A stretch of DNA of 64,000 nt from Opitutales bacterium (GTDB lineage: Bacteria; Verrucomicrobiota; Verrucomicrobiia; Opitutales; UBA2995): the NCBI GenBank assembly GCA_965204545.1, contig CBDBFA010000002.1:174487-238486 (forward strand). Reading direction: 5' to 3'. The notes below the pieces were generated by a model that saw only the letters and a list, made by a program, of their open reading frames with translations, had not been told where the DNA came from and searched no databases. The translations under genes and the position numbers were made by a program. This document shows, piece after piece, positions 21,312 through 62,738 of this stretch (within the stretch, counting starts at the first letter, position 1; each line of letters begins with the position of its first letter).

Positions 21312-23321
21312 CTACTTTACAGTTTGTGATGGAATTTCTTTCGGAACGAAGGGTTTCTTCTGCACTGCCATCAACGGGCTTTCCGGAGAACCGGAAGCTC
21401 CCCTGCCCCAGCGGTAGTAGAGTTGTTGCCCGGTGATGGCACGATAAGCGCGATCAAAGGGTTTATTCTGGCTTCCATAGCGATGATTTGGGTTGAACTT
21501 CTCCTTTGCGATCGCGAGCGGTTCAATCGCTGCCTGGAGTTGCTCGTTCGCATCCGGCGGCTGCGAATCGAGAATGTTGCCCACCCGAACCTGGACGTCG
21601 GTATTGGGATGCCCCATCTCGGCGATCAGCACCGGCAGGGCTTCCTCGTAATGACCCAGGTTGAATAATCCCTCGGCAGCCAGCAGGCGCACGTCGATGG
21701 ATTCATCCATCAGAGCCTCCTTCAGGTTAGGCAGGATCCCTTCGACCACTTCGGGCCCGGCGGTCTGGGTGACCACCGCCAAACCCAACACGGCCCAGTA
21801 GCGGACCAGGGGATCGGAATCCTTGCTGCGGGTATTCAGTTCCGGCACGGCGTCCTGACCCAGGAGCTGCAGATTGGCGGTTTCGAGAATCCGTTGGTAA
21901 TTGTCCAGTTCCTGACCGACCGCCCAGAGGGAGCGTCCCTGCGCCCTTTCGTATAGTTCGCGCTCTTCGACGAGGGCGAGGTCGCGGGTCTCGACCATCC
22001 AATCGCGCAGGCGTTTGCGCATCTGATTCAAAACCTTGGCATACTTTGGATCACCCACAAGGTTTTTGACCATGTGTGGATCGGTTTCGGAATCATACAG
22101 TTCCTCCAATGGCTTGAAGCGGTTGGCGAGCAATTCCTGGTCGCCGGTCAGCTTGCCTGATCGTGCCAGCTTCACCCAATGTTCGAGCAATGGCGCGGTG
22201 AATTCGTAGGTCTCGTAGGGTTTGAAAGGAAGGTGCGGGTAGAAGTTGCGCTGGTAGCGGAAGCGCTTGTCGCGAATGGCGCGGACGAACTCGGAACGCG
22301 TATCGAGGCGGTTGCGGACAGCCACCAGGAACTCGCGCTTTTCCGCATCGCTCTTGCACAGCAGCGCCCGACCGTGCATGTAGTCCGGCGGTTCGATTCC
22401 GACCATCTTCAGGACCGATGGTCCTAAGTCCATCAGGCAGACCAGATCATCCACCACCGAGCCCGGTTTGGTAGGCGCCAGATGCTGGTACTTCTCCGGG
22501 AACCGCACGATCAAGGGCACATGGGTGCCCTGTTCCCAAGCCGTGTGTTTACCCCGTGGCATGCCCACGCCGTGATCGGCCCAAACTATGACGATCGTAT
22601 CGTCCCACAGCCCGTCTTCCTTGAGCTGGGCGATGATTTCTCCGGTCCGGTAGTCGACCTGAGTGACCGCATCGTAGTAGCGCGACCAGGCCTTGCGAAA
22701 GACGGGGTCGTCAGGGTGGTAGGGCGGGATCGGCACCTCGGCTGGATCGTGGAAGTCCTTCGGCTTAAGTCGATTCAATCGCTTCTCGACTATGTCTTCT
22801 TCCGAAAACTTCGTGATGCTGGAGTGACATTCGCCGAAGTCGACTTTGGAGAAGAACGGCTGATACTTGTCCGGACGGCTGCGCCAGGGGGTGTCATCCC
22901 CAATTTTGCCCCGTTTGTCATACTGCATCCCGACAATATTGAAGTCTCTCTTCTGGTTCGTGGTGTAATAGCCGGCCTCGCTCATCAGGTTGGGAATGAA
23001 TTCCAGGAACTCCGGCGCCCGGATGCCTCCGCTGCGATGATGCATGGTCCCAATCGTGGTCGGATACATTCCGGTCACGATGCTGGACCGCGACACAGAG
23101 CAGACCGGGCCGACCGAATGGGCGCGCGTGTAACGAATCCCCTCTTCTGCCAGCTTATCGAAGTTCGGCGTTTTCGCATACGCGTCGCCATAACAACCCA
23201 TCAATGGTGTGATGTCTTCCAGCGCAATGTAAAGGAAGTTGGGGCGATCCGAAGAAGCCTCTGAAATCGCCTGATCCGTAATAATGAAAATGGCTAAAAC
23301 AATTAATACATATGGTTTCAT
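21312..23321 (-). CDS. sulfatase fused to C-terminal HEAT-repeat region
   Basis: 669 aa. YIALEDITPLMGCYGD, active-site segment PVCSVSRSS, HGVGMPRGKH. The C-terminal roughly 180 aa carry VRYWAVLGL...VRLLAAEGL...VQVRVGNIL HEAT-like repeats. Confidence 0.8.
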   Translation of the reverse strand: MKPYVLIVLAIFIITDQAISEASSDRPNFLYIALEDITPLMGCYGDAYAKTPNFDKLAEEGIRYTRAHSVGPVCSVSRSSIVTGMYPTTIGTMHHRSGGIRAPEFLEFIPNLMSEAGYYTTNQKRDFNIVGMQYDKRGKIGDDTPWRSRPDKYQPFFSKVDFGECHSSITKFSEEDIVEKRLNRLKPKDFHDPAEVPIPPYHPDDPVFRKAWSRYYDAVTQVDYRTGEIIAQLKEDGLWDDTIVIVWADHGVGMPRGKHTAWEQGTHVPLIVRFPEKYQHLAPTKPGSVVDDLVCLMDLGPSVLKMVGIEPPDYMHGRALLCKSDAEKREFLVAVRNRLDTRSEFVRAIRDKRFRYQRNFYPHLPFKPYETYEFTAPLLEHWVKLARSGKLTGDQELLANRFKPLEELYDSETDPHMVKNLVGDPKYAKVLNQMRKRLRDWMVETRDLALVEERELYERAQGRSLWAVGQELDNYQRILETANLQLLGQDAVPELNTRSKDSDPLVRYWAVLGLAVVTQTAGPEVVEGILPNLKEALMDESIDVRLLAAEGLFNLGHYEEALPVLIAEMGHPNTDVQVRVGNILDSQPPDANEQLQAAIEPLAIAKEKFNPNHRYGSQNKPFDRAYRAITGQQLYYRWGRGASGSPESPLMAVQKKPFVPKEIPSQTVK

Positions 23322-25244: not shown

Positions 25245-27257
25245 CTAAGGCGACCCCGAGGCGCCGGAACCCCAGCGGTAAAAATTTTCTTCACCGCTTG
25301 CGACTTTGAGCGCTCGCTGGAAAGGGTAATTGATTCCGTAGGGAATTCCGGGCATCTCGACCACTTGCGACTTTTCCACCGCCTCTCTCAATGGCTCAAT
25401 TGCGGGCCCGAGTTCAGCGACGGCTTCCGGTGGTTGAGTATCGAGAATTCCCGCAGCCCGGACCTGGGCGGAAATAACGGGATGGTTCAATGCCTCGATG
25501 ACAACCGGCAGAGCTTTCTCATAACGCCCGCTGTTGAACAGGCCCTCGGCCGCAGTCAAACGCACGCTGACCGACTCGTCGGCTAAGGCCGATTGCAAAC
25601 AGGCAATGACTTCGGCATCATCGGATCGAGTGGACACCAAACCGAGCACAGCCCAGAAGCGAATGGCCGAATCGGGATCTTCGGCCCGGACCAGCAACTC
25701 AGGAATCGCCGCTTCGCCCCGGACCTGGAGGTTGGCCGTTTCGAGGATCCGTTCGTAGTTGTCGAGCGACTGGCCGAGGTCCCAAGGCGATTCTCCTTCC
25801 TTAAGACGTCCCAACATTTCCGTTTCCTCGAGAATGGCAATGTCCCGTGTATCCAACATCCACTGGTGGAGTCGGTCGCGCATCCGTTTTACGACCTCCG
25901 CGTATTTCGGATCATCGATTACATTGTCGATCAGGAGAGGGTCATTCTCCGAGTCGTAGAGTTCTTCAACCGGCTTGAAACGCATAGCGAGCATTTCCAG
26001 AGGACCGGTAAGTTTCCCCTCCCGAGCCAGTTCTACCCATTCTTGCACGACCGCTGCCCCAAATTCGTAATCCTCGTAAGGTTTGAAGGGAAGGTGCGGG
26101 TAAAAATTGCGCTGGTAGCGATACCGGGCGTCGCGCACGGCACGGACCATTTCAAAACGCGAATCGAGACGGTCGCGCATGCTGAATACGGCGTCCCGGT
26201 ACTCGATTTCGCCCGGTCCGTTTTTGCAAAACAGCGGGCGACCTTCCATGTGTTCGGGGACATCGAGACCTGCTAAAGTCAGTACGGATGGACCGAGATC
26301 CATCAGCGTTACCAGCCCATCAATGACGGCGCCTGGTTTGGCGGGAGCCAGATGCCGGTACTTCTCCGGGAACCGCGCGATCAGGGGGACGTGGGTTCCC
26401 TGTTCCCATAGGGTATGTTTCCCACGGGGCATGCCCACTCCGTGATCGGCCCAAACAAAGATAATGGTATCTTCCCAAAGGCCGTCCTCCTTCAACTTAT
26501 CGATCACTTCTCCCGCCCGGTAGTCCACCTGCGTGACCGCGTCGTAGTAGCGGGACCATACCTTGCGGAACTCGGGCACATTCGGGTTGAAGGCAGGAAC
26601 GGGAGCTTTCTCCGGATCGTGAAAGTCCCCCGGTTGGAGTCGGTTTAGCCGCTCTTCCACGATCTCGTCTTCCGTATACTTGGTGATGCTGGAATGGCAC
26701 TCCGAAAAATTGAAGACGGCGAAGAACGGCTGATCCTTTTGGGACCGGTTTCGCCAATGGGCCTGCCTGCTGCTCTCGTGCCAAATTGGATCATCCTTTT
26801 GTTTCTTCCCGGCATCCTCGCCGGTAACGGCCCCCATGTTATAGTCTTCCTTGAAATTATTGCTGGTGTAATAACCGGCCTCGATGAGAAGGCTCGGGAA
26901 CAACTTGGCAAATTGAGGCGGTCGCGTGTTACTGCGATGATGCAAGGTTCCCAACGAGTTGGGATACATTCCCGTGATGATGCTGGAACGCGATGTTGAA
27001 CACACCGGAGCTATTGCGTGAGCTTTGGTGTAGCGGATGCCTTGCGCAGCCAGGCTGTCGAATACCGGAGTGCGGGCATACTCGTCTCCATAACAGCCCA
27101 TCATCGGCGTGATATCCTCGAGCGATATCCAGAGAATGTTGGGTCGGACGGGGTCATCAGAGTTATCGGGCGATGGTGGGTCTGCCCCATCCACCCCGCA
27201 GGCAATGAAGAGGATCGATAACGAGAGGTTAGTCCATTTTCCAATACAAGGTCTCAT
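25245..27257 (-). CDS. sulfatase fused to C-terminal HEAT-repeat region, paralog
   Basis: 670 aa. WISLEDITPMMGCYGD, PVCSTSRSS, HGVGMPRGKH. Same C-terminal HEAT-like repeats (IRFWAVLGL, VRLTAAEGL). Confidence 0.8.
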   Translation of the reverse strand: MRPCIGKWTNLSLSILFIACGVDGADPPSPDNSDDPVRPNILWISLEDITPMMGCYGDEYARTPVFDSLAAQGIRYTKAHAIAPVCSTSRSSIITGMYPNSLGTLHHRSNTRPPQFAKLFPSLLIEAGYYTSNNFKEDYNMGAVTGEDAGKKQKDDPIWHESSRQAHWRNRSQKDQPFFAVFNFSECHSSITKYTEDEIVEERLNRLQPGDFHDPEKAPVPAFNPNVPEFRKVWSRYYDAVTQVDYRAGEVIDKLKEDGLWEDTIIFVWADHGVGMPRGKHTLWEQGTHVPLIARFPEKYRHLAPAKPGAVIDGLVTLMDLGPSVLTLAGLDVPEHMEGRPLFCKNGPGEIEYRDAVFSMRDRLDSRFEMVRAVRDARYRYQRNFYPHLPFKPYEDYEFGAAVVQEWVELAREGKLTGPLEMLAMRFKPVEELYDSENDPLLIDNVIDDPKYAEVVKRMRDRLHQWMLDTRDIAILEETEMLGRLKEGESPWDLGQSLDNYERILETANLQVRGEAAIPELLVRAEDPDSAIRFWAVLGLVSTRSDDAEVIACLQSALADESVSVRLTAAEGLFNSGRYEKALPVVIEALNHPVISAQVRAAGILDTQPPEAVAELGPAIEPLREAVEKSQVVEMPGIPYGINYPFQRALKVASGEENFYRWGSGASGSP

Positions 27258-32414: not shown

Positions 32415-33890
32415 TCAACCCGGTGAGGCCGCCGACCGAGCCTTGTTTTCCGCTTCATGCAGAAGGCCCCGCATGGTTTTGAGCTGGTCGCCATGGGATT
32501 CCTTTCCAGCCAGATTGACATGTTCCTCCGGGTCGGTGGCCAGATCGTAAAGTTCTTCCCCATCCGGCCAACGGGCATAGCGCCAGCGTCTGGTCCGGAT
32601 CGCTTTCCCGAATTTTTGGCCTCGGGTAACCACGGTGTAAACGGCCTTCTTCCCGGGAGCATCGGCATCCGTCAGCCGGGGGACCAGACTCCTGCCTTGG
32701 AGATCCCCGGGAGTGGTAATGCCACAGAGTTCAGCCAGGGTGGGAAAGAGATCGACCAGTTCAGTGAGGCCCAGACTGACCGAGTTTGGCTTGGTTTTGC
32801 CCGGTACCCGAATTATCAGCGGAACCCGGTTGCATATTTCAAACAAGGTCACCTTGCCCCACATGAAGTGTTCTCCCAGTTGATATCCGTGATCTGAGGT
32901 CAGAACGATGATGGTGTCGTCCCACAGACCCGTGGCCTGAAGCTTCTGAAAAATAGCGCCGATTTGGGCATCGATAAATGAAATGCAGGCGTGGTAAGCC
33001 TGCATGTACTCACGCCGCAATCCGTCGTTTTCCACGCCCAGTTCAAACCCGAAACCTTCATAGCGTTTTACCATGGATGTTTTAGGCGCATGGTCCCAGA
33101 AGTCGACAGGCGGGGAGACATAGCTCAGCTCCTCGCGCGGATACCTTTCGAAATAGGCCTCCGGCGCCAGGAAAGGGACGTGGGGCTTGTGAATCCCCAC
33201 CGCAATGAAAAACGGTTTGGCGCCGAAACTTCGCTGGTCCAGCCAGGCAAGAACCTGCGCCACATTTTTCCCGTCCTTATGCTGATGGTCCTCCAGCCCG
33301 GATGGGCCATATCCCGGAGCCTGACCCCGCGTCTGGGTGGAATAGGTTAATTGGAATTCTTTCCAAAGTGTTCGGTTACTCCGTCCACTGACCGACCCAT
33401 GCTCAGCCTCAAAGGCTTTACGCGCCTCCGCTTCAATGGGCATTTCGTCGTTCCGAAAAAAGGTTTTCTCATTCCAAACCAGCTCCCCGGGATCCAATTT
33501 GGGATTGTGAAATACCTTCCCGGTCGCAGCCGTCCAGTAACCCTGTTCCATGAACGCTTGCGGCATGGTCACGGTACCCGGCCTGGCATCCCGCATATCG
33601 GTATTATTGTCTGTCACACCGGTCGATTCCGGATACAGTCCGCTGAGGAAAGAGGCCCGGGAGGGACCGCAAACGGGGTATTGACAGTAGGCCCGCTTGA
33701 AGGTCATCCCGCTGGAGGCCAATTTTTCAAAGGCCGGGGTATGGATATTCGGATAATCGGAAGTTGAAACATGCGTATTCAGATCATCGCATACGATGAA
33801 CATGACGTTGGGCCGTTTATCCGCACTGAGGGAAAGTGCCCCAGCAGCGGGGATGATAACCAAGCAAAGATTGGAGATTAATCGTTTCAT
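32415..33890 (-). CDS. formylglycine-dependent sulfatase (iduronate-2-sulfatase-like)
   Basis: Start at MKRLISNL (signal peptide). FIVCDDLN and canonical CGPSRASFLSG. Confidence 0.85.
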   Translation of the reverse strand: MKRLISNLCLVIIPAAGALSLSADKRPNVMFIVCDDLNTHVSTSDYPNIHTPAFEKLASSGMTFKRAYCQYPVCGPSRASFLSGLYPESTGVTDNNTDMRDARPGTVTMPQAFMEQGYWTAATGKVFHNPKLDPGELVWNEKTFFRNDEMPIEAEARKAFEAEHGSVSGRSNRTLWKEFQLTYSTQTRGQAPGYGPSGLEDHQHKDGKNVAQVLAWLDQRSFGAKPFFIAVGIHKPHVPFLAPEAYFERYPREELSYVSPPVDFWDHAPKTSMVKRYEGFGFELGVENDGLRREYMQAYHACISFIDAQIGAIFQKLQATGLWDDTIIVLTSDHGYQLGEHFMWGKVTLFEICNRVPLIIRVPGKTKPNSVSLGLTELVDLFPTLAELCGITTPGDLQGRSLVPRLTDADAPGKKAVYTVVTRGQKFGKAIRTRRWRYARWPDGEELYDLATDPEEHVNLAGKESHGDQLKTMRGLLHEAENKARSAASPG

Positions 33891-33957
33891 GGGCCTTTTA
33901 TTCGAATCCGAGTGAGAAATGCGGGCTAGTGTGGTGTCCCTTAAATAATCCATCACT

Positions 33958-34115
33958 ACCATTCCGAAACGTAAACGGTAGGGCAGCGGCATCCTTGCCG
34001 CGCCGACCAGCGACCCGCCGGCCACTTACGATAGCCCTGCCATTTCGAAACGTAAACGGTTACGGCATCGCGGGGACGCGATTGCCCTACCATTTCGAAA
34101 GGTAACCGGTAGCAT
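33958..34115. repeat. REP-like hairpin array
   Basis: Three units of CCATT(C/T)CGAAA(C/G)GTAA(A)CGGTA flanked by GCCCTACC/GGTAGGGC arms. CATCGCGGGGACGCGATTGCCCTACC recurs at 16389-16417. Confidence 0.6.
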
Positions 34116-51104: not shown

Positions 51105-52673
51105 TTACTCCTCCAATTGCACAAAGGGCCGCTCCGAGGCCCAACGGTTATACATTTCCACGTTTCTTTTGACCGCTGCGTGAGCTTGGGGATTTCGTTT
51201 GTTTCTGCCGATCTGGTATTCCATCTCCACAGCGTAAACTTCGGGAGATTCGGGACCGGGATCATCCGTATGCTTCATCCAGGATTTAAGGCGCTGTCGC
51301 ATGGACTTTAAAACCCCTTCGTAATCCGTGCGCCCGGCCAGATTCAATGTTTCGTAGGGGTCCGTCCGAACATCATAGAGTTCCTCGACCGGCCGACTTG
51401 GCGAAAACAGCAGTTTCTCTTGCAGATCAGTTAACTTTCTTTCTGCGTGCAATTCGCGCAAGCGAATCAATATGGGTTTTGAGTCCTTGTAATTGGTCGG
51501 TTGAAGGTGCGGACGATCCGGGAAAAAGTTGCGGATGTATTTATACCTGTTGGTGCGGACCGCACGCGTCATGTCCACGGTTTCCCCACACCGGTCTCTG
51601 GCCGCAAATACCGCTTCCTTGGGTCTGTAATCCTTGGCCAAAATGTCATCCCCCTGCATCCAATCGGGAACGGGCAGACCGGCCAGGGCCAAGGAAGTTG
51701 CGGCCAAGTCGATATGTTCCACCAGATCATCGCGAACGAGACCTCTTATAATTCCCGGTCCGCGGATTATCAAAGGTGTACGTATGCCCTCATCGTAAAC
51801 GAACTGCTTGCCGCGGGCATGGCTGATACCGTTATCGGCAAACAGAATGATGATCGTCTCATCGAGCAGGCCTTCAGTCTCCAGATTGTGGAGGATCTCA
51901 CCCACCAATTGATCCGTATAACGGACCGTATCCAGGTACTGGGCCCAATCGTCCAGGATGATGGGATCTCTGGGGTAATAAGGCGGAAGCTTTACTTTCC
52001 CGGCATCGACCACTGATCCGAGAAGCCTTTTGGCTCCTCCATTCCCCCAGGATTCCGGATGTCGATGCTTGCCCCCCAATAGTTGAAGCTGAGCGAAGAA
52101 GGGTTGATCAACGCCCCTTGCAAAGTAATAGGGCGCGTCATACATCGATTCATCCCATTGGAAATTGTAATCCGTTTTACCCAGGCCTTTACTCCTTTTG
52201 GGATAGTTTCCATTGGCGGTGTAATAACCCGCTTCCTGAAACAGATGGGGGATGGGAATTACCCTTTCCTGAAGGTGAATTTTTCTTTTTCCGCGTCCGC
52301 TTTGGTGGTTATGGGCGCCAATAGTGGTTTGATACATTCCCGTAATCAGGGAGGACCGAGCCGTGGAACAAACCGGGGAGGTCAAAAAGGCGTTGGTAAA
52401 GCGAATACCTTCTCTGGCCAGGCGATCGATATTGGGGGTTTCAATGACCTTCTCTCCATAGCAGGAAAACTCGCAGCCCATGTCATCGATTACCACCCAA
52501 AGGATATTGGGCCGACTTCTCTCGGTGCGGCCTTGTTGTCCGGTGAACGAGGACAGGGCGTCTTGCCCGAAAAGCTGTCCTGAAAAAAGGCACAGGGCAA
52601 ATAGTAAAGGCTGAATAGAATAGGAAACCACAAAAGGCACAAAAAACACAAAAAGGAGACTCTCGCCAAGCAC
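51105..52673 (-). CDS. sulfatase (S1 family) with CSTAR active-site segment
   Basis: ILWVVIDDMGCEFSCYGE, SPVCSTARSSLITG. The first 15 codons or so are translated repeat DNA, so the true start may be the GTG near VVSYSIQPLL. Confidence 0.8.
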   Translation of the reverse strand: MLGESLLFVFFVPFVVSYSIQPLLFALCLFSGQLFGQDALSSFTGQQGRTERSRPNILWVVIDDMGCEFSCYGEKVIETPNIDRLAREGIRFTNAFLTSPVCSTARSSLITGMYQTTIGAHNHQSGRGKRKIHLQERVIPIPHLFQEAGYYTANGNYPKRSKGLGKTDYNFQWDESMYDAPYYFARGVDQPFFAQLQLLGGKHRHPESWGNGGAKRLLGSVVDAGKVKLPPYYPRDPIILDDWAQYLDTVRYTDQLVGEILHNLETEGLLDETIIILFADNGISHARGKQFVYDEGIRTPLIIRGPGIIRGLVRDDLVEHIDLAATSLALAGLPVPDWMQGDDILAKDYRPKEAVFAARDRCGETVDMTRAVRTNRYKYIRNFFPDRPHLQPTNYKDSKPILIRLRELHAERKLTDLQEKLLFSPSRPVEELYDVRTDPYETLNLAGRTDYEGVLKSMRQRLKSWMKHTDDPGPESPEVYAVEMEYQIGRNKRNPQAHAAVKRNVEMYNRWASERPFVQLEE

Positions 52674-52926: not shown

Positions 52927-53910
52927 CTACCATTCCGTTCGGAAGACATCCACCCCGTCATAGAACTTGAGAAGCTCCGCCATCCGGTCTTCATCGAGGA
53001 TCAGGGCGAGGGTAGCCAAGCCGTCCGCCAAGGCGCAACTGGAAGCCAGCACGGTGGCGCTGGCAATGTCTGCCTTAACGGGCCGACCCGTTTTTGCATT
53101 TAAAATATGGGAGTAGCGTTGCCCCCCGGAAATAAAGGTTTTTTGCGAATGGCCGCTGGTGGCCAAACTGCGATCTTTCAGTTCTAATACCATGGCCAAG
53201 TCCTTTTCTCGGCCCTTTGAATCCGGGCGAATGACGCCAACCGTCCAGGGAACTCCATCCTTGTGGGATCCTCTGGCGGCAATTTCGCCGCCCAAGTTAA
53301 TGATAAAATTATCAATACCCCGATTCCGCAACAGCTCGGAAATCAAATCGACCGCATAACCCTTGGCCACGGCGGAGCAATTGATTTGGAGATCTGCCTG
53401 TCGCTTCATTATGGAACGCCTTTCCGAACTGAAAACAAGCTTATCGAATCCGACCTCCTTTAAAGATTCATCTATGGCAGCCTGTTCGGGCACGGTAGTG
53501 CCGGGTTTGGTCCCGAATCCCCAAAGTTCGATCAGTGGAGACAGGGTTGGGTCGAGCATTCCTCCCGATCGTTCGAACAGCTCGAGGCACAGGTTCAAGA
53601 CCTCAAAGGCATAGTCGGGAACCGGGATGACCTCATCGGCCGGAGCCGCGTTGAAAAGATTGACCCAACTGTCCTTGCGCCAATTGGAAAGCTGCTGTTC
53701 GAACGCGTCCAGTAAATCCTCAATTTCTTTCCTCAAATTCCGGACGGGAACCTTTTCCTCACTCCGGAATTCAATCGTATAGAAAGTCCCCATGGCATCG
53801 CCCTTTAAATACCCCGCCTCGGGCCGAGGGCCGCAAGCGACGACCAGAAAAAAAAAGGAGAACCCGAGGAGAAGGTTAAAGCCTTTCGATTCGCACCAGA
53901 ATTTTTTCAA
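52927..53910 (-). CDS. apbE: FAD:protein FMN transferase (ApbE family), probable lipoprotein
   Basis: GDAMGTFYTIEF, NCSAVAKGYAVD, LATSGHS. The track ORF extends to 53994. I prefer the TTG at 53910 (preceded by AGGTGA), which gives MKKFWCESKGFNLLLGFSFFFLVVACG. Confidence 0.8.
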   Translation of the reverse strand: MKKFWCESKGFNLLLGFSFFFLVVACGPRPEAGYLKGDAMGTFYTIEFRSEEKVPVRNLRKEIEDLLDAFEQQLSNWRKDSWVNLFNAAPADEVIPVPDYAFEVLNLCLELFERSGGMLDPTLSPLIELWGFGTKPGTTVPEQAAIDESLKEVGFDKLVFSSERRSIMKRQADLQINCSAVAKGYAVDLISELLRNRGIDNFIINLGGEIAARGSHKDGVPWTVGVIRPDSKGREKDLAMVLELKDRSLATSGHSQKTFISGGQRYSHILNAKTGRPVKADIASATVLASSCALADGLATLALILDEDRMAELLKFYDGVDVFRTEW

Positions 53911-54919
53911 TGAGTTCACCTGCCGTGGTAAGGTGACTTGAGTCGTAGAAGATATTGCCGCTTTGCTGGCTGCTGCTTCCCCCATGGCCGACAAATTCCA
54001 TCAGATAATATTTCTTGGGTTCGGTCGGATCGATGTAGGCGCTGTAATAGACGGAAGGCTGCCCCACCCCAGGAAAGGTGTAGCCTTCATTGGCCTCCGG
54101 TTGGTCCGTATGGTAGAAATCGTTCGGATCGTTGGGGGCATTTACTTCCACGCTCAGGTAGAAGCCTTCCGGATCTTCATCGATATACCGTTCAATGGAA
54201 AAACTATGCTCGGGAGTGGCGCCTGAAAACGTGTCGATATCCCCATCCGGCGCTACCCCGGAGGCCAAGGTAAACTGATGTCGCCAAATGGGCAGTATGT
54301 CCACCCTTCGCCTCTCATTGCCGGCCCACTCGATGGATTCGGTAAAAGCGCTTTTTTCAGAAACGAAAAATGTCTCAATGAGGGAACCCACGGACGATTC
54401 CGCCCAAACGGCAATTTGGGGGCGGGATCCCGTGAAGGGCGCAGGGAATTCGGCCACGGGATCGAAAGCGGGGCCCCATTCGATTTCCACAAAGACCGAG
54501 GCTTCCCCGGAAGACTGACGCTTCACCTGCATACCTCCGTCGAAAGTGCGAGTGGCGGCGCCATCCTCGGGACGAAATATGATCCTGCTGTTTTTGACTT
54601 CGTGTCCAAGGGAGAGCAACTGTGGAACCGGCCACCAGTCGAGAAGACTGGCTGATAGTAAAAAGGTACAGGCAAGAACGGGAACCAGGATCAGGCGGTG
54701 AGGCTGGCTAGCCGCACTTGTCTTTCGGGGCCTTAACCTCCGGGAAAAATAGGAAAGTCGCGAGGAAAGGTGAAGGGCAACGAGCAACAAGACCAACCAT
54801 CCAAACACGATATGAACCTGGGTTGTGGCCAGGCTGAACGGCTCAAAGAAACGCAGTAATCCACTGGTAACAAGAACGCCAAAAGCGAAAAACAAAGCAA
54901 AGTTAACGTAATGCTTCAT
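53876..54919 (-). CDS. membrane protein: DUF4405-like N-terminal helices fused to a DUF2271-like domain with a DxxSGAT flavinylation motif
   Basis: 347 aa. Three hydrophobic helices (HIVFGWLVLLLVALHLSS), then QIAVWAESS... and DTFSGAT at aa 229-235 (nt 54215-54235). Confidence 0.6.
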   Translation of the reverse strand: MKHYVNFALFFAFGVLVTSGLLRFFEPFSLATTQVHIVFGWLVLLLVALHLSSRLSYFSRRLRPRKTSAASQPHRLILVPVLACTFLLSASLLDWWPVPQLLSLGHEVKNSRIIFRPEDGAATRTFDGGMQVKRQSSGEASVFVEIEWGPAFDPVAEFPAPFTGSRPQIAVWAESSVGSLIETFFVSEKSAFTESIEWAGNERRRVDILPIWRHQFTLASGVAPDGDIDTFSGATPEHSFSIERYIDEDPEGFYLSVEVNAPNDPNDFYHTDQPEANEGYTFPGVGQPSVYYSAYIDPTEPKKYYLMEFVGHGGSSSQQSGNIFYDSSHLTTAGELIEKILVRIERL

Positions 54920-55179
54920 TCTGCAGGGCTAGTGTGGCATCCCTTTAATAAATAACCACAGAGCACACAGAGAACACAGAGGGGCAAGAGCGCCAAAGGC
55001 TGAAGGCTGAATATTGGGAAGGCCGTATTTTCGAAGAATTTGGGGACAGGAATGTCCCCGCTCCTTTCGCCATCGCCACTCTTCACTCTCCACTCTCCAC
55101 TCTCCACTAACCCGAGAAGGCATGACTTTCCCACGGCATGATCCCGACGGAAGTGTGAGGAAATTTCTGAGACATGACA

Positions 55180-57054
55180 CTAGGATGGTTCAGCCAAAGT
55201 AGACCCATCGCGATCGACCAAGGCATTCTTCTCACCTTCATAACCACACAGCCTGCGCAGTTCTACGATGTGCTGCTTGCCTACCTGCCTGGGGTCGGCC
55301 TTGTACTTTATGCAAAGGGAAGCTGCAAAGCCGGTGGCCACACCCATTTGCCCGCAGGTATTCATCACACGAGGACCACCCAGCCCGATATGGGAGCAAC
55401 TGAAGCAGCGGCCCGCCATTTGCAGATTGGGAACATCCTTCGAATAGAGTGACCGATAGGGAATGTAGTAGTAGGTATGCTTTATCCTCTGGAATAAGGC
55501 CTCAGATAGAAAGTCTACCGGCAAGCCCAGCAATTTTTCCTGGTAATGCACGTCGATCTTGCGCTTTTCCGTGACCACCGCGTCGAAAAATTGCACCGAA
55601 TCCCTGGCATCCACCCCGGTATAGATGTGATCCCCCATTATCCTGCGGGACTCGCGCTTTCCCACCAGGAATGAAATCCAGTCCAGTTCCAAATTCGCAT
55701 TCTCCCGCCTCTTTATGGCATTGGCATAGGAACCATAGATAGCCCGGAACATATGGTCGCGGATCGTTTCCGCATCGTGGATTTGGTGAAGATCGTTGTG
55801 GGAATACTCCCATTGCCACTCCCCGGCTGTGGCCACGTGGTTTTTCGCAACCGGTTTAGCCCAGGGAACAGCAGGAAATTTTACCCGTTGGTTCCTTTCA
55901 CCGGTATACCACATGACGCTAGAACCCATTACGCGGTTATCAGGCTTTTCCGGTGACCAGAGTTCCCCGTGCTCTTGCCACTCTTCCCCGAACTCATGTT
56001 TGGATTCTCGACCATAACGGTATTGGCAACCCGCCATGTAACCCAGCCATCCATCCCCCGTGCTATCCAGGAACTGGGTGCCGGTAAATCGTTTGAAAGT
56101 CCCATTGGCCGTTTCCACCGCCTTGACGGCATGAATCCGGCCATCCTTCATTTCACAGGACATCATGATATGACTAAGAAAAATATCGACGTTGCTCAAA
56201 GCCTTCATGTTGGCCATACGCTTTTTGTCCGCTTCCAGCGCCAGCGGATCCGAATTGGGATAATGAGGGGTATCAATCAGATCGAGGATAGCGCTTGCCC
56301 GTCCGTGAATACCCTCCGTATGCACGCGAATCTCTCCGCTGGCATTGCCACCCAAGACGGGCCGATTTTGAATGAGGGCAACTTTCAGCCCCTGGGAATC
56401 CGCCGCGATGGCTGCAGCACAGCCGGCGATACCTCCACCGACGATGACGAGATCATAGTGCCCCTGATCGACTGCGGAGGATGGCAAACCGACTTTTTCA
56501 CGTCTCCACTTTGGCAACACATTCTTATCGATGGGGGGAATGTCGTCGGCATCCCGGGAAAAATAGATGGCAGAACAACGTCCCTCGAATCCCGTGAGAT
56601 CTTTCAGATCTACCGTAGTTGAAAGTTGGCCTTCCGGTATATCCATCGAACCACCGGGCTGCCAGCCCCATTCGGCCTTCGTTCCAAAGGTTTCCGGCAA
56701 AGGCTCGCCGCCCACCAACACCTGAAACTGTCCCGGCGAATCCCAATCCCCGGGACACCAATCCTTGGTCAGCGCCCAGACATGGTAGGTTCCAGCCGAT
56801 GGAAACTGAATCCTGCCGCTGGCGTTGTCCACCGGCTTCCCCAAGCCATGGGCCAGCAGGTAACTGAAGCCAAGGTGCAGCTCAAACTGGTTGTCAAGCA
56901 TCCAACCGCCCAAGTTCTTGAAGTGGGCCGTTTCCACCAGAACCGACTTGCCGTCTCCGGATTTGGCCGTCTTTCCAAATAGAGGGTGCGAAGCTAATAG
57001 AGCAGCCGAAGCCACACTCATCCTGTGGATAAATTCCCTGCGTGTTTGGCTCAT
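55180..57054 (-). CDS. Tat-exported FAD-dependent oxidoreductase (FAD_oxidored/PF12831-like) with N-terminal beta-sandwich region
   Basis: MSQTRREFIHRMSVASAALLA twin-arginine leader. YDLVIVGGGIAGCAAAIAA...NRPVLGGNASGE dinucleotide-binding motif at about aa 200. Confidence 0.75.
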   Translation of the reverse strand: MSQTRREFIHRMSVASAALLASHPLFGKTAKSGDGKSVLVETAHFKNLGGWMLDNQFELHLGFSYLLAHGLGKPVDNASGRIQFPSAGTYHVWALTKDWCPGDWDSPGQFQVLVGGEPLPETFGTKAEWGWQPGGSMDIPEGQLSTTVDLKDLTGFEGRCSAIYFSRDADDIPPIDKNVLPKWRREKVGLPSSAVDQGHYDLVIVGGGIAGCAAAIAADSQGLKVALIQNRPVLGGNASGEIRVHTEGIHGRASAILDLIDTPHYPNSDPLALEADKKRMANMKALSNVDIFLSHIMMSCEMKDGRIHAVKAVETANGTFKRFTGTQFLDSTGDGWLGYMAGCQYRYGRESKHEFGEEWQEHGELWSPEKPDNRVMGSSVMWYTGERNQRVKFPAVPWAKPVAKNHVATAGEWQWEYSHNDLHQIHDAETIRDHMFRAIYGSYANAIKRRENANLELDWISFLVGKRESRRIMGDHIYTGVDARDSVQFFDAVVTEKRKIDVHYQEKLLGLPVDFLSEALFQRIKHTYYYIPYRSLYSKDVPNLQMAGRCFSCSHIGLGGPRVMNTCGQMGVATGFAASLCIKYKADPRQVGKQHIVELRRLCGYEGEKNALVDRDGSTLAEPS

Positions 57055-59281: not shown

Positions 59282-60451
59282 TCATCCGATTTTCTCCATC
59301 TGAGAAATAGTCGTTTCGGTGGGTTCGACTCCAATTCCAGGACCGTCCGCAACACGATACACACCTTTCCGACATGCAATACCCCGGGTAATCAATCCGG
59401 TGTTTCGATTGAATATGGAAGGTTGATATTCATGCCCGATGACCCCCTCGAGAGCCAAACTGGCCTGAAGACTGGCCGCCAGAAATATGCCTGCGCCAAT
59501 GGTGGCATGGGGAATTATCGCTATACCCTGGGCATGAGCTGCTTGGCAGATGCGCACAAATTCGGTTATGCCGGTATGCCCCATTTCCGGTTGGACGATC
59601 TGCAAGGCATCGGCATCGAAACGAAGCTGAGCTTCGTAAAGGGTGCGCCACTCCTCTCCCGCCCCAACCGGAGTCCTAACGGATTGGGCCACCTTGGCCA
59701 ACCCCTTGATGTCTTCCGGTTTGACGGGAGCCTCGGCAAACCACAATCCGTGTTCCTCCATTGCCTTGATCTCGGCGATCGCGCCTTCAGGGGTAAATGC
59801 CCAATGCAGGTCACAGGCGATCCCGGCATCCGGCCCCAATGCCGTTCGCAGCGCGGAAACTTCCTCAACATTCCCGTCGTCTGCCACCGCCCCGGCAATC
59901 TTGAAGGTGTTGAAACCCTCCTTCTGCCATCCCCTGGCGTATTCCACCCGCTCCTCCAGGGTTGGCTTTGGCAACCCGGATACGTAGCAGGGTAAAGTTT
60001 TGCGCAAACGGCCCCCCAATTGCTCGGCCAGGGATCTACCAGCTTCCCGGGCAGAAACATCCCAAAGAGCCATATCCACCGCGGCCAAGGCATCCAGATA
60101 AAATCCACCCGAATAGCCGCGTACCCGCATCAAATCATACAAATCGTCATGGATCTCAGAGGCCTGGGACGGATAGCGATCTACCACAAAATCGACCAGG
60201 AGGTCGTTGATGATTTCAGTGGTGGCACGGGGAGCCGCCAATCCGTAGGTTTCACCCCAACCCACCGCACCTGAATCGGTTTCCACCCGCACCAGAACCG
60301 TTCGGTCCCTGTCCAGATACACCGTCTTGTTTCCCTTGCGAACAAAGTAGCCCTTGTCATTGACCTCTTCTCCGCTTCGCAAGGCTCCCAGATAGGGTTC
60401 GTCCCGTGTAACGGTCAGAATGAAGGCCTCGACTTTGGCCACGCGGCTCAT
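59282..60451 (-). CDS. enolase-superfamily (mandelate racemase/muconate lactonizing) acid-sugar dehydratase-like enzyme
   Basis: 389 aa. GWGETYG, ALWDV, metal-ligand contexts ACDLHW / FAEAP / GEEW. Confidence 0.75.
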   Translation of the reverse strand: MSRVAKVEAFILTVTRDEPYLGALRSGEEVNDKGYFVRKGNKTVYLDRDRTVLVRVETDSGAVGWGETYGLAAPRATTEIINDLLVDFVVDRYPSQASEIHDDLYDLMRVRGYSGGFYLDALAAVDMALWDVSAREAGRSLAEQLGGRLRKTLPCYVSGLPKPTLEERVEYARGWQKEGFNTFKIAGAVADDGNVEEVSALRTALGPDAGIACDLHWAFTPEGAIAEIKAMEEHGLWFAEAPVKPEDIKGLAKVAQSVRTPVGAGEEWRTLYEAQLRFDADALQIVQPEMGHTGITEFVRICQAAHAQGIAIIPHATIGAGIFLAASLQASLALEGVIGHEYQPSIFNRNTGLITRGIACRKGVYRVADGPGIGVEPTETTISQMEKIG

Positions 60452-61377
60452 GCGACGGTTCGATTCAGAGGTGCTATTTCAAATAGATTCGATAGAGACG
60501 CCAACTGGGCATTGATTTCGGCTTCATCATAGGAATCGAATTCTTCCAGTGGGGCACGAACATAAGCGTTATCCAGGACGCCTCGTTTGGTTAGTACATA
60601 CTTGGTCAGGCGCATTCGGTAAAGCAATTGAATTATGAGCAACGGCAACGCTCGCATATAAAGAAGCCGAGCTTCCGCCTCATCTGCGGACTGATAAGCG
60701 TTCCACATTCTTACGTGGATGTCCGCTATCTCGGACGCGGGCATTGCCGCGATGGCGCCCCGGTTCATTTCGTCGATCAAATACCGTGCCCCGCCGCCTC
60801 CAATGACCCCGGTAAGGTGATCGGGGGCAGTCTGTCTCAATGCGGTGATCCTCGGACCGGATGGCAAAACCTCCTCCTTGACGTAATGAATGGCGGGGGA
60901 TGCTTCCACAATGCGAACCAACTCTGCCGCACCGAGGCCTGCTCCCACCGGCGCTGGAGCGTTTTGCAATATGATTTCCACTCCGGGCGCGTTCTCTATT
61001 ACCGATTTGATAAAACGCAGCGCCCCGTCCGCATCCTTCTCAAACATGGCTGGTATCAACACCATGGCGGCCGCTACACCCAACTCGCGAGCTTTCATTA
61101 TCTTGGACCCGATCTCTTCGGGGCTACCATTACCACCTCCGCATATGATGGGAACTCGATTTCCCGCTACCCGGCAAACCGTCCCCAACAGGCAGTATTG
61201 TTCTTCCCTGGAGATGTGCTCGTATTCACTGGCCACCCCGGGAAAGACCAATCCACTCGCCCCGGCATCCAGGCAAAACCGCGCCACCCTTTCCATGGCC
61301 GCCCCATCCACTCTCCCATCCTCACTGAAGGGGGTCGGGAGAACCGGAAGAATGCCCTGAAGTTGGGGTGAACTCAT
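60448..61377 (-). CDS. DapA-family class I aldolase (2-keto-3-deoxy-sugar-acid aldolase-like)
   Basis: 309 aa. LPTPFSEDGRVD, FPGVASEYEHIS, Schiff-base lysine context IHYVKEE. 4-nt overlap with the downstream enolase-family gene. Confidence 0.7.
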   Translation of the reverse strand: MSSPQLQGILPVLPTPFSEDGRVDGAAMERVARFCLDAGASGLVFPGVASEYEHISREEQYCLLGTVCRVAGNRVPIICGGGNGSPEEIGSKIMKARELGVAAAMVLIPAMFEKDADGALRFIKSVIENAPGVEIILQNAPAPVGAGLGAAELVRIVEASPAIHYVKEEVLPSGPRITALRQTAPDHLTGVIGGGGARYLIDEMNRGAIAAMPASEIADIHVRMWNAYQSADEAEARLLYMRALPLLIIQLLYRMRLTKYVLTKRGVLDNAYVRAPLEEFDSYDEAEINAQLASLSNLFEIAPLNRTVA

Positions 61378-61382
61378 GAATC

Positions 61383-62738
61383 TCAGTTGACGGTTACCTT
61401 CTTCAATTCCTTTTCATCAAATTCTATTCCCAGGCCGGGTTTTTCCGGAACCGTGGCAAAACCGGGTTCAAACTTCAGCGGTTCCTTGAGAAGCACGTTT
61501 CCCCGGGACGAACGGACATCGGTGGCATTATGAATATTTCCGGCTTCCATGATGACGGCATTAGGTGTCGCCACCGCCAGATGAAGGGACGCGGCCACGT
61601 AAGGCGGCATGCCGCTACTGACGTGGGGCGACCAAAGGACGCCAAAGGTATCGGCCATATCGGCAATCCTCTTACACTCCGTGATTCCACCCGCACGACC
61701 CACATCGGGATTAATTATATCGGCCCCCTGCTTTAAGAAGAGTTCGCGGAACTGGAAGCGATTGGCATACGTTTCGCCTACACACACGGCCGTATCCAAA
61801 GCCTCAGCCAGTTTCGCATAGCCCGAGGTATCTTCCGGCATAAGGGCGTCTTCAAACCAGCCTATGTTTCCGAGATCGTCCAGTTTTCTTCCCACGCTGA
61901 TGGCCTCATGCAATTTGAACGCTCCCAGTGAATCAATCATCAGTTGACCCTTGTCCCCGATCGCTTCCGATACATCGGCGACCACATCAAAACCCTGGGA
62001 AGTGGATTTGTTGAACCCCATCTTTACCGCCGTAAAACCTTCCTCGATGGCTCGCCGGGCATCCTCGGGAGTCCCCGCACCCCGGTAGGTCGGTATTTTA
62101 TCCCGGTATTTTCCGCCCAGTAGTTGATAAACGGGTACACCTGCAAATTTTCCCAGTATATCCCACAAGGCAATATCGATAGCAGCAATTGAATCGGTGT
62201 AGAAGCCGGTGGAATAACCCCTCATCCGCTGACTGGAATACAACTTATCCCAAATGGGCCCGATTCTCCGGGCGTCCTCTCCCAGGATTATGGGAGCAAA
62301 CAGGTCGGTGATCAACTTGGCATGGACAGCGGGGGCCAAAGGAGCATGGGCTTCACCCCAACCGATAATCCCCTGATCGGTAGTGATTTTGACCAATGTG
62401 GTCAGAGAATGCCCTTTCGACCGGGATGGGAAATTGTGGTTCAACCGATTACGAAGTCCCACCTGGTCGGTCATGCTACCCAAGGGCGGCATCTCCACCG
62501 CTTCACTCAGAGGCCCGTCGATCATGGGCGAACTCGTGATGACGGGTTCGACCTTGGTGATCTTCAGCGGACTGGTGCCGAGTTCCATCTCCCTTCTCCC
62601 CATGGGGGAAGGCCGGGTTGGGGGTGGCGAAGCCTTACTTCTTTCAACTTGCTGGGCGCCCATCCTCGAAATTGGCATGAATGAAGATACGGCCAACAGG
62701 CTCCCCCATTTAAGGATTTCCCGGCGGGTTCTCACCAC
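61383..62738 (-). CDS. enolase-superfamily enzyme carrying a twin-arginine signal peptide
   Basis: 451 aa. MVRTRREILKWGSLLAVSSFMPISRMGAQQ leader followed by a roughly 40-aa linker, then GWGEAHA, ALWDILGK, IDSLGA / FEDAL / GETYA metal-ligand contexts. Confidence 0.7.
   Translation of the reverse strand: MVRTRREILKWGSLLAVSSFMPISRMGAQQVERSKASPPPTRPSPMGRREMELGTSPLKITKVEPVITSSPMIDGPLSEAVEMPPLGSMTDQVGLRNRLNHNFPSRSKGHSLTTLVKITTDQGIIGWGEAHAPLAPAVHAKLITDLFAPIILGEDARRIGPIWDKLYSSQRMRGYSTGFYTDSIAAIDIALWDILGKFAGVPVYQLLGGKYRDKIPTYRGAGTPEDARRAIEEGFTAVKMGFNKSTSQGFDVVADVSEAIGDKGQLMIDSLGAFKLHEAISVGRKLDDLGNIGWFEDALMPEDTSGYAKLAEALDTAVCVGETYANRFQFRELFLKQGADIINPDVGRAGGITECKRIADMADTFGVLWSPHVSSGMPPYVAASLHLAVATPNAVIMEAGNIHNATDVRSSRGNVLLKEPLKFEPGFATVPEKPGLGIEFDEKELKKVTVN

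Follow-up and report, generated by a model that had tools for sequence, protein, structure and literature searches.

A widely conserved gene pair encoding a predicted Tat-exported FAD enzyme and a candidate flavin-heme membrane protein in an Opitutales bacterium and its relatives

How a flavoenzyme exported to the periplasm might exchange electrons with the cytoplasmic membrane is the question raised by three neighboring genes of a marine Opitutales bacterium (UBA2995). The genes lie on the reverse strand at 52927-57054 of the window, by which is meant the whole stretch of 64,000 nt that was analyzed (contig CBDBFA010000002.1, positions 174,487 to 238,486). They encode an oxidoreductase dependent on flavin adenine dinucleotide (FAD) with a twin-arginine (Tat) leader, a small membrane protein, and an ApbE-family transferase of flavin mononucleotide (FMN). 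The answer favored here, at somewhat better than even confidence, is that the FAD enzyme and the membrane protein would together make up a periplasmic oxidoreductase of two components, which would be matured by ApbE and connected to the quinone pool of the membrane. All functional claims made for this module are computational.

The argument begins with gene order. Across 80 species-representative genomes (from the Opitutales, Verrucomicrobiales/Akkermansiaceae, Limisphaerales, Pirellulales, Phycisphaerae, Lentisphaera, Kiritimatiellia, and Balneolaceae, with single metagenome-assembled genomes of other phyla), 74 species have a full-length orthologue of the FAD enzyme, 50-97% identical, encoded on the strand of the membrane gene and upstream of it. 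The gap between the two is at most 600 bp in 68 species (median about 55 bp, with some genes overlapping), and in 6 others the FAD gene is one or two genes away. The pair spans the Verrucomicrobiota, Planctomycetota, Lentisphaerota, and Balneolaceae, and was found from the enzyme side in the cultured Pelagicoccus mobilis, Rhodopirellula rubra, and Planctomycetales bacterium 10988. Co-conservation of this kind is the expectation for a functional electron-transfer pair and therefore supports the pairing. An initial annotation of the locus had taken all three genes as a set that might be co-conserved. For the FAD and membrane genes this holds, but ApbE lies directly downstream in only 21 of the 80 species, mainly Opitutales, Balneolaceae, and a few Planctomycetes, and clustering of the approximately 900 genes around the membrane gene at the 80 loci yielded no third gene of comparable conservation. 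The conserved unit is the FAD/membrane gene pair, not a trio with ApbE, and this pair is both widely conserved and uncharacterized.

The membrane protein belongs to a large family, with 122 full-length relatives of 325-376 aa recovered by a word-indexed search and 751 cluster representatives at E <= 0.001 in an exhaustive profile search. Its hydrophobic segments (aa 4-26, 28-56, and 74-96) bear out the earlier description of three N-terminal helices with conserved histidines, and its AlphaFold2 model, with a predicted local distance difference test score (pLDDT) of 74, places helices at residues 2-25, 30-60, and 73-93, followed by a beta-sandwich. Two histidines of the second helix, His36 and His50, are conserved in 81 of 81 sequences (the window protein and those of the 80 genomes). 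Two histidines 14 positions apart on one helix are the classic spacing of di-heme cytochromes b, and His36 and His50 are the proposed axial ligands of two b-type hemes. Both fall inside a match to DUF4405 (PF14358), one of the hidden Markov models that the initial annotation had named for a check. The window protein scores 26.7 bits, exactly the cutoff, and among 28 diverse family members compared with Pfam (matches counted at E<1) all 28 match, the best at E = 1.5e-8. Several members are named DUF4405 domain-containing by NCBI and UniRef. The Ni_hydr_CYTB model of the cytochrome b561 family is matched weakly by 23 of the 28, the similarity staying below the Pfam threshold (16 bits against 30), and the Escherichia coli anchor proteins of that family, b0974 and b3892, co-match DUF4405 (PMC12727194). 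DUF4405 itself has been shown experimentally to be a heme b protein that binds the cofactor via conserved histidines and to co-localize with apbE (Huang et al. 2024, mSystems, PMC11334425).

The orientation of the protein in the membrane can be predicted from the loop between the second and third helices, which carries a mean of 6.5 Lys and Arg versus 0.5 Asp and Glu across the 81 orthologues. Because of the positive-inside rule, the C-terminal soluble domain is predicted to lie in the periplasm, a location that the initial annotation had left to be checked, with His36 nearer the periplasmic face and His50 nearer the cytoplasmic one. As the protein has only three helices, a dimer would be needed to build the heme sites; FezC, a related protein, can form DUF4405-like heme sites by homodimerizing (PMC11334425). 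Neither a PDB profile search nor Foldseek returned a meaningful solved relative of the membrane protein, and no DUF2271-like or DUF4405 structure was detected by them.

The periplasmic domain carries what would be the other redox center of this protein. The heptad DTFSGAT, which like the segment QIAVWAE (aa 168-174) sits exactly where the initial annotation had placed it, fits the motif recognized by ApbE, Dxx(s/t)gA(T/S), with its conserved acceptor Thr or Ser (Meheust et al. 2021, eLife, PMC8238504, which also describes flavinylation of DUF2271 domains), and Thr235 is accordingly the predicted FMN acceptor. At the acceptor position, 79 of the 80 orthologues aligned there have Thr and one has Ser, the remaining sequence having an alignment gap. 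Around it, D229 is found in 73/81, [ST]232 in 75/81, and H238 in 80/81, with variation at the -3 and -2 positions ([STA] and [GSAQR], respectively). Elsewhere in the domain W172, R205, and W212 are invariant, and a GQPS block is nearly so (G286 in 68/81, Q287 in 69/81, P288 in 78/81, S289 in 79/81). The pattern D..[ST]GA[ST] has a chance expectation of 0.0017 in a protein of this composition and occurs only once among the six-frame open reading frames (ORFs) of at least 150 aa in the whole window; the motif survives, too, in stand-alone relatives of the domain and in very divergent ones. The motif is not a chance match.

The fold that bears the motif is harder to place. The initial annotation had called the soluble domain DUF2271-like, a label that membership of the family does not sustain: PF10029 scores 13.2 bits with the isolated domain (E = 0.074) and 12.3 with the full protein against a threshold of 27.3, so that assignment as a DUF2271 member is rejected by the Pfam criterion. 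The same model is matched at E<1 by 10 of the 28 members (best 0.0013), and these weak alignments are consistent, covering the N-terminal half of the model (HMM positions 15-73 of 136) and ending at the flavinylation site. For stand-alone relatives the scores are 15-21 bits, and one divergent fusion is labeled "DUF2271 domain-containing" by NCBI. At about 250 aa versus about 135 for DUF2271, the soluble domain may be at most a larger, distant relative of that family; it has no fold match in the PDB by Foldseek or profile search.

Relatives of the soluble domain also occur as proteins of their own. These are approximately 230-255 aa long with lipoprotein or signal-peptide leaders (P0316, P0320, P0325, P0343, P0351, P0356, and P0385) and keep the pattern D-x-x-[ST]-[GS]-A-T-P-E, as at loci L090 (7001-7729) and L091 (7001-7732). 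No ApbE, cytochrome, or FAD gene lies near them, so that by motif they would be orphan candidate flavinylation substrates. The contexts of these domains and of a divergent fusion (L088-L091) are uninformative or unrelated.

The gene downstream of the membrane gene is a secure member of the FMN transferase family, and its catalytic activity is predicted from this membership. It scores 260.6 bits against PF02424 (cutoff 25.6) and matches the PDB entry 6nxi at E = 1.8e-50 together with 12 further FMN transferase or ApbE-family structures. Its score of 183 in the NCBIfam equivalog model, against a cutoff of 498, marks it as a family member and not as the equivalog of the E. coli protein. As had been suggested earlier, the ORF begins with a lipoprotein leader if translated from an internal TTG: the product starts LKKFWCESKGFNLLLGFSFFFLVVAC and has a lipobox-type VVAC with Cys26 at nt 53833-53835. 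An AGGTG Shine-Dalgarno-like sequence precedes this start, which gives a 35-nt overlap with the membrane gene, and close relatives keep both the N-terminus from the TTG and the overlap (-28 or -25 nt). ApbE is thus predicted from its leader to be an extracytosolic lipoprotein.

The presumed partner of the membrane protein is the enzyme encoded upstream, described in the initial annotation as a 624-aa FAD oxidoreductase with a TRREFI leader about 260 bp away, a description with which its Pfam match and the measured gap of 260 nt agree. It scores 225.9 bits with PF12831 over HMM positions 1-408 of 416. The N-terminus, MSQTRREFI, opens a leader (TRREFIHRMSVASAALLA) in which the twin-arginine motif is followed by a hydrophobic stretch. 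In an alignment of 28 orthologues, R5 and F8 never vary and R6 is retained in at least 90%, so that the RRxF core is kept; by motif the enzyme is a Tat substrate, and its export is predicted. The orthologue group has more than 7,800 homologues and is very strongly conserved, with a mean column identity of 64% across the 28 sequences and several invariant or near-invariant Cys. The AlphaFold2 model (pLDDT 83.9) adds an N-terminal all-beta domain of about 135 aa, modeled at pLDDT 87-96, that contains many invariant columns, among them the blocks GGW..D.Q and YLLAHG.G.PV, and that has no Pfam match at E up to 10.

As to the substrate of this enzyme, the PDB and Foldseek return only a dinucleotide-binding motif and a generic fold. 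Sequence and profile searches of the PDB matched that motif and nothing more, and neither they nor NCBIfam nor Foldseek gave a substrate assignment. The Foldseek matches share a generic two-domain flavoprotein fold (template modeling scores of 0.2-0.3, 10-16% identity) and include FrdA/SdhA, flavocytochrome c3 fumarate reductase, urocanate reductase, geranylgeranyl reductase-like proteins, and aromatic hydroxylases. Similarity to PF00890 is confined to the 38 residues of the Rossmann motif (aa 201-238), and full-length homology to the FAD_binding_2 catalytic domain of fumarate reductase-like enzymes is absent. The coordinates of the module are collected in Table 1.

Table 1. Features of the module, in window coordinates
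Feature	Position (nt)	Strand	Basis
FAD-dependent oxidoreductase, Tat-exported (predicted), 624 aa	55180..57054	-	PF12831 match
Twin-arginine motif TRREFI, aa 4-9 of the FAD enzyme signal peptide	57028..57045	-	sequence reading
N-terminal beta-sandwich, ~aa 35-170 of the FAD enzyme	56545..56952	-	AlphaFold2 model, conservation
PF12831 FAD-binding/catalytic region, aa 201-592, with GGGIAGC Rossmann motif	55279..56454	-	Pfam match
Spacer between FAD gene and membrane gene, 260 nt	54920..55179	-	non-conserved, short tandem repeats
Membrane protein, 347 aa	53876-54919	-	ORF
Membrane domain, three transmembrane helices, DUF4405/cytochrome b type, aa 1-96	54632..54919	-	Pfam, AlphaFold2
Second-helix segment with His36 (nt 54812-54814) and His50 (nt 54770-54772), H-x13-H	54770..54814	-	conservation
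Periplasmic soluble domain (predicted), aa 97-347, beta-sandwich, at most a distant DUF2271 relative	53879..54631	-	AlphaFold2 strands, weak Pfam match
Flavinylation motif DTFSGAT, aa 229-235; Thr235 (nt 54215-54217) predicted FMN acceptor	54215..54235	-	sequence reading
ApbE-family FAD:protein FMN transferase, predicted lipoprotein; ORF 52927-53994, start TTG 53910	52927..53910	-	PF02424

Taken together, these features suggest a path for electrons. The FAD enzyme would fold with its cofactor and then be exported by the Tat route, and the lipoprotein ApbE would move FMN from FAD to Thr235 in the periplasmic beta-sandwich of the membrane protein. The three-helix DUF4405-type domain, probably as a homodimer, would hold two b-type hemes, one at His36 on the periplasmic side and one at His50 on the cytoplasmic side. 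Contact between the two proteins would then allow electrons to pass among the FAD of the enzyme, the tethered FMN, the hemes, and menaquinone. In the favored direction they would run from substrate to FAD, FMN, heme b, and quinone, making the pair a periplasmic dehydrogenase linked to the respiratory chain, the substrate being probably a glycan-derived small molecule.

The lean towards substrate oxidation is due to the mostly aerobic nature of the carriers, to the anaerobes examined, which are without the membrane subunit, and to the catabolic context in the Opitutales. Carriers of the pair fall mostly in lineages of aerobic heterotrophs. The strictly anaerobic Sedimentisphaera cyanobacteriorum (L086 6001-7797) and S. 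salicampi (L093 5001-6800) each encode an orthologue 55% identical to the FAD enzyme, with no DUF4405-type partner beside it. The neighbor there is an unrelated protein, with a PEP-CTERM-like C-terminus in the former and a PEP_exosort_dom match in the latter. In the Opitutales the context of the pair includes an MR_MLE protein with a Tat leader, an SSF symporter, and a DHDPS-type aldolase, a setting that would suit a sugar being oxidized in the periplasm and the resulting sugar acid then being taken up. A more specific proposal, put forward tentatively, is that the pair could be an unrecognized respiratory periplasmic dehydrogenase of bacteria of the Planctomycetes-Verrucomicrobia-Chlamydiae (PVC) group and the Balneolaceae, in which the PF12831 enzyme would oxidize a glycan-derived sugar or sugar derivative and pass electrons to menaquinone via covalent FMN and di-heme b. 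The periplasmic sugar dehydrogenases already known use cytochrome c, pyrroloquinoline quinone, or iron-sulfur carriers.

Several observations weigh against a two-component respiratory oxidoreductase. The characterized DUF4405 protein has six transmembrane helices and four His, whereas this one has three and two invariant His, and heme binding would therefore require the dimer. The soluble domain is under the DUF2271 threshold, and its flavinylation loop is modeled at pLDDT <50 (residues 226-238). ApbE is not adjacent at 52 of the 80 loci, all of which have enough downstream sequence to show it, so that flavinylation there would rely on an ApbE encoded elsewhere in the genome. At five loci with enough upstream sequence the membrane gene has no FAD gene nearby, and divergent fusions (L089) and stand-alone domains (L090, L091) sit in unrelated contexts. 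In the window itself a 260-nt non-conserved spacer parts the FAD and membrane genes, which bears on their co-transcription. Lastly, fumarate and urocanate reductases, which run the other way, are among the structures that the fold of the enzyme matches best.

This last point belongs to the most serious rival, the same wire run in reverse, in which quinol would reduce the hemes, the covalent FMN, the FAD of the enzyme, and finally a periplasmic substrate. The pair would then be a reductase serving respiration or detoxification, with MsrPQ and the flavinylated fumarate and urocanate reductases as its analogues. The characterized flavinylated extracytosolic enzymes of the superfamily to which those fold matches point are reductases fed from the membrane, and either direction is possible according to the authors of that survey (PMC8238504). 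Set against this are the generic quality of the fold matches and the brevity of the PF00890 resemblance already described, the two strict anaerobes that have the enzyme and not its membrane partner, the aerobic lineages of most carriers, and the Opitutales neighbors, which are catabolic (symporter, dehydratases, aldolase) with none that is respiratory. A reductase is on balance rather unlikely, while remaining a serious rival to the dehydrogenase.

The other explanations dispense with electron exchange between the two proteins, and synteny and the conservation of the acceptor residue make both less likely. The membrane protein could be an autonomous flavin-heme reductase, for example an assimilatory ferric or siderophore reductase, placed beside the FAD gene by co-regulation. 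Clusters of DUF2271 with PepSY-like proteins are tied to iron reduction (PMC8238504), several Planctomycetes have extracytoplasmic function (ECF) sigma and FecR-like genes flanking the pair, one family member weakly matches Ferric_reduct, and the FAD gene is missing from the five loci noted above and from some divergent fusions. This alternative is nonetheless improbable: same-strand adjacency at 74 of 80 loci across phyla, often at less than 50 bp or with overlap, is hard to explain without a shared function; neither iron transporter nor DUF4198 nor PepSY genes recur in the 80 neighborhoods; and a periplasmic FAD enzyme needs a redox partner, of which no other is encoded nearby. Still less credible, and very improbable in our judgment, is that the SGAT motif is not flavinylated at all, the soluble domain being a structural or substrate-binding anchor that tethers the FAD enzyme while ApbE serves Nqr, Rnf, or other proteins. 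The loci without an adjacent ApbE, the variable -3 and -2 positions of the motif, and the sub-threshold DUF2271 score could be cited in its favor. It is hard to reconcile with an acceptor Thr/Ser at 80 of 80 aligned positions, flanked by a conserved Asp at -6 and His at +3, with retention of an improbable motif in stand-alone and very divergent relatives, with the position of ApbE, where it is nearby, immediately downstream and overlapping the membrane gene in the lineage of the window, or with the lack of any other candidate substrate motif in the window.

Comparison with known systems shows how far the proposed electron path has precedents. The general kind is already published: ApbE-flavinylated carriers coupled to membrane cytochromes, DUF4405 heme b proteins included, have been described, as have fusions of cytochromes with flavinylated domains, MsrQ-FMN_bind among them, and their modular use with oxidases or reductases (PMC8238504, PMC11334425). 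Closest are the flavinylation-associated DUF4405 cytochromes (PMC11334425), which share with the module the PF14358 match found in every family member, the conserved transmembrane His, the association with apbE, and a presumed function as conduits through the cytoplasmic membrane for electrons bound for, or coming from, a flavinylated domain in the periplasm. Beyond the counts of helices and histidines and the need for a dimer, as proposed for FezC, the differences lie in the partners and hosts. The characterized protein works with a separate flavinylated Flavodoxin_4 protein and is found in Proteobacteria and Firmicutes, whereas here the predicted flavinylated domain is fused in cis and of another fold, a PF12831 enzyme takes the place of the partner, and the module occurs in PVC bacteria and Balneolaceae. 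The PepSY-like/DUF2271/ApbE clusters (PMC8238504) join, as the module is predicted to do, a three-helix heme protein to a small, beta-rich periplasmic domain in which ApbE flavinylates an [S/T]GA[S/T] site. The module differs from them in having neither PepSY nor DUF4198, in a soluble domain that is longer, below the Pfam threshold, and fused to the cytochrome, and in its link to a flavoenzyme instead of iron-uptake genes.

Other resemblances are more partial. In MsrPQ and in fusions of MsrQ-like proteins with FMN-bind domains, a di-heme b membrane protein is joined to a flavin carrier, by fusion or by coupling, and works for a periplasmic oxidoreductase exported by Tat, as is proposed here; there, in contrast, the cytochrome is of the six-helix ferric-reductase type, the flavin domain has the FMN_bind fold, and MsrP is a molybdoenzyme reductase. 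Listeria FrdA and Shewanella UrdA are extracytosolic FAD enzymes fed via covalent FMN installed by ApbE, and the general two-domain flavoprotein fold is shared. These are PF00890 enzymes with a built-in FMN_bind domain, whereas in the module the predicted flavinylated domain is on the membrane anchor and the PF12831 enzyme has an additional N-terminal beta-sandwich. The Ni_hydr_CYTB anchors HyaC and FdnI/FdoI are di-heme b subunits that take electrons from a Tat-exported periplasmic dehydrogenase to quinone, but they have four transmembrane helices, receive electrons from iron-sulfur subunits, and have no covalent flavin; the family resemblance of the module to them is the sub-threshold match given above.

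In the literature searched, no description was found of a cis fusion between a three-helix DUF4405-type domain and a divergent DUF2271-like flavinylated domain, of the near-obligate pairing of such a fusion with a Tat-exported PF12831 enzyme, or of a distribution of the module in PVC bacteria and Balneolaceae. This fusion, PF12831, and the PVC phyla all go unmentioned in the main text of the two flavinylation papers (PMC8238504, PMC11334425). The initial annotation's statement that no characterized system has this combination thus needs dividing, since the general concept was in print while the particular combination appears to be undescribed.

The wider surroundings of the pair vary by lineage. 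Among gene clusters near the pair at the 80 loci, sulfatases recur at 37, ApbE at 20, and ECF sigma factors at 9, the rest being lineage-specific. The sulfatases may plausibly reflect the background of PVC genomes. In the window one lies at 51105-52673 (-), directly downstream of ApbE, and others at 2353-4161, 21312-23321, 25245-27257, and 32415-34025; in Planctomycetales bacterium 10988 three consecutive sulfatase genes follow the pair (L092 7910-11857). ECF sigma and FecR-like anti-sigma genes adjoin the pair in several Planctomycetes (L003 2295-4441, L087 8905-10853, L092 3135-4990), which suggests regulation by an extracytoplasmic signal in those organisms.

The initial annotation had also wired the module to a sugar-acid locus. 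That link is lineage-specific: MR_MLE genes are near the pair at 13, SSF at 10, and DHDPS at 5 of the 80 loci, in Opitutales and a few others, and the sugar-acid genes are an Opitutales-specific context of the pair. In the window an MR_MLE protein of the enolase superfamily (61383-62738, -) has a twin-arginine-type leader, MVRTRREILKWGSLLAVSS, and beside it are a second MR_MLE gene without a leader (59282-60451) and the DHDPS-type aldolase (60448-61377). The leader is conserved in other Opitutales (L006 2348-3652, L007 2098-3399, L012 2707-4008, L013 283-1584, L014 190-1509), and MR_MLE paralogues with Tat-like leaders also occur in L008, L024, and L031. It would be unusual for a sugar-acid dehydratase to act in the periplasm.

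Variants of the enzyme are found as well. Orthologues P0177, P0183, P0198, and P0222 reach about 750 aa through a conserved C-terminal extension of about 130 aa, which lacks both a Pfam match and any obvious cofactor motif. PF12831 paralogues of greater divergence (about 30% identity) are encoded near the module in Balneolaceae and some Opitutaceae (L002 3604-6048, L014, L013, L033, and L034), one of them bearing an F5/8 type C domain, and these hint at local families of related periplasmic flavoenzymes.

The spacer between the FAD and membrane genes was considered as a possible site of regulation, a candidate that was rejected: it has no promoter-like or terminator-like site, does not align even with relatives 84-89% identical, in which the spacers are 73-360 bp, and shows no excess RNA structure (fold z-score 0.0). 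Within it (54957-55108) are three tandem arrays, of a 7-nt unit CCACTCT (x4.7), a 9-nt unit (x2.8), and a 7-nt unit (x2.3), and the equivalent spacer of L007 has short repeats of its own. Farther away, two proteins of about 900 aa encoded in the window (10786-13506 and 16549-19230, both -) have the Planctomycete-type PSCyt1/PSD2-5/PSCyt3 set with heme c-like domains, and a Planctomycetota metagenome contig encodes, a few kilobases from the module (L003 12418-13911), a protein with RVT_1 reverse-transcriptase and TIR domains that looks like a defense-system gene.

The PF12831 "FAD-dependent oxidoreductases" are very numerous in the Planctomycetota, Verrucomicrobiota, and their relatives, and for the orthologue group described here no characterized member, solved close relative, or paper was found. 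The pairing of one conserved subgroup with a dedicated membrane subunit, a candidate flavin-heme protein, offers a concrete, testable hypothesis, that of a redox step in the periplasm with a link to the respiratory chain, in organisms relevant to the turnover of marine sulfated glycans. Cultured hosts in which it could be tested include Rhodopirellula rubra, Pelagicoccus mobilis, Fodinibius roseus, and Lentisphaera marina. To the known ApbE-dependent electron-transfer architectures the module would add a cis fusion between a DUF4405-type cytochrome and a divergent DUF2271-like domain, a new enzyme partner, and new phyla. If the dehydrogenase reading is true, it would provide a first functional handle on a family of flavoenzymes with thousands of uncharacterized members in marine polysaccharide degraders.

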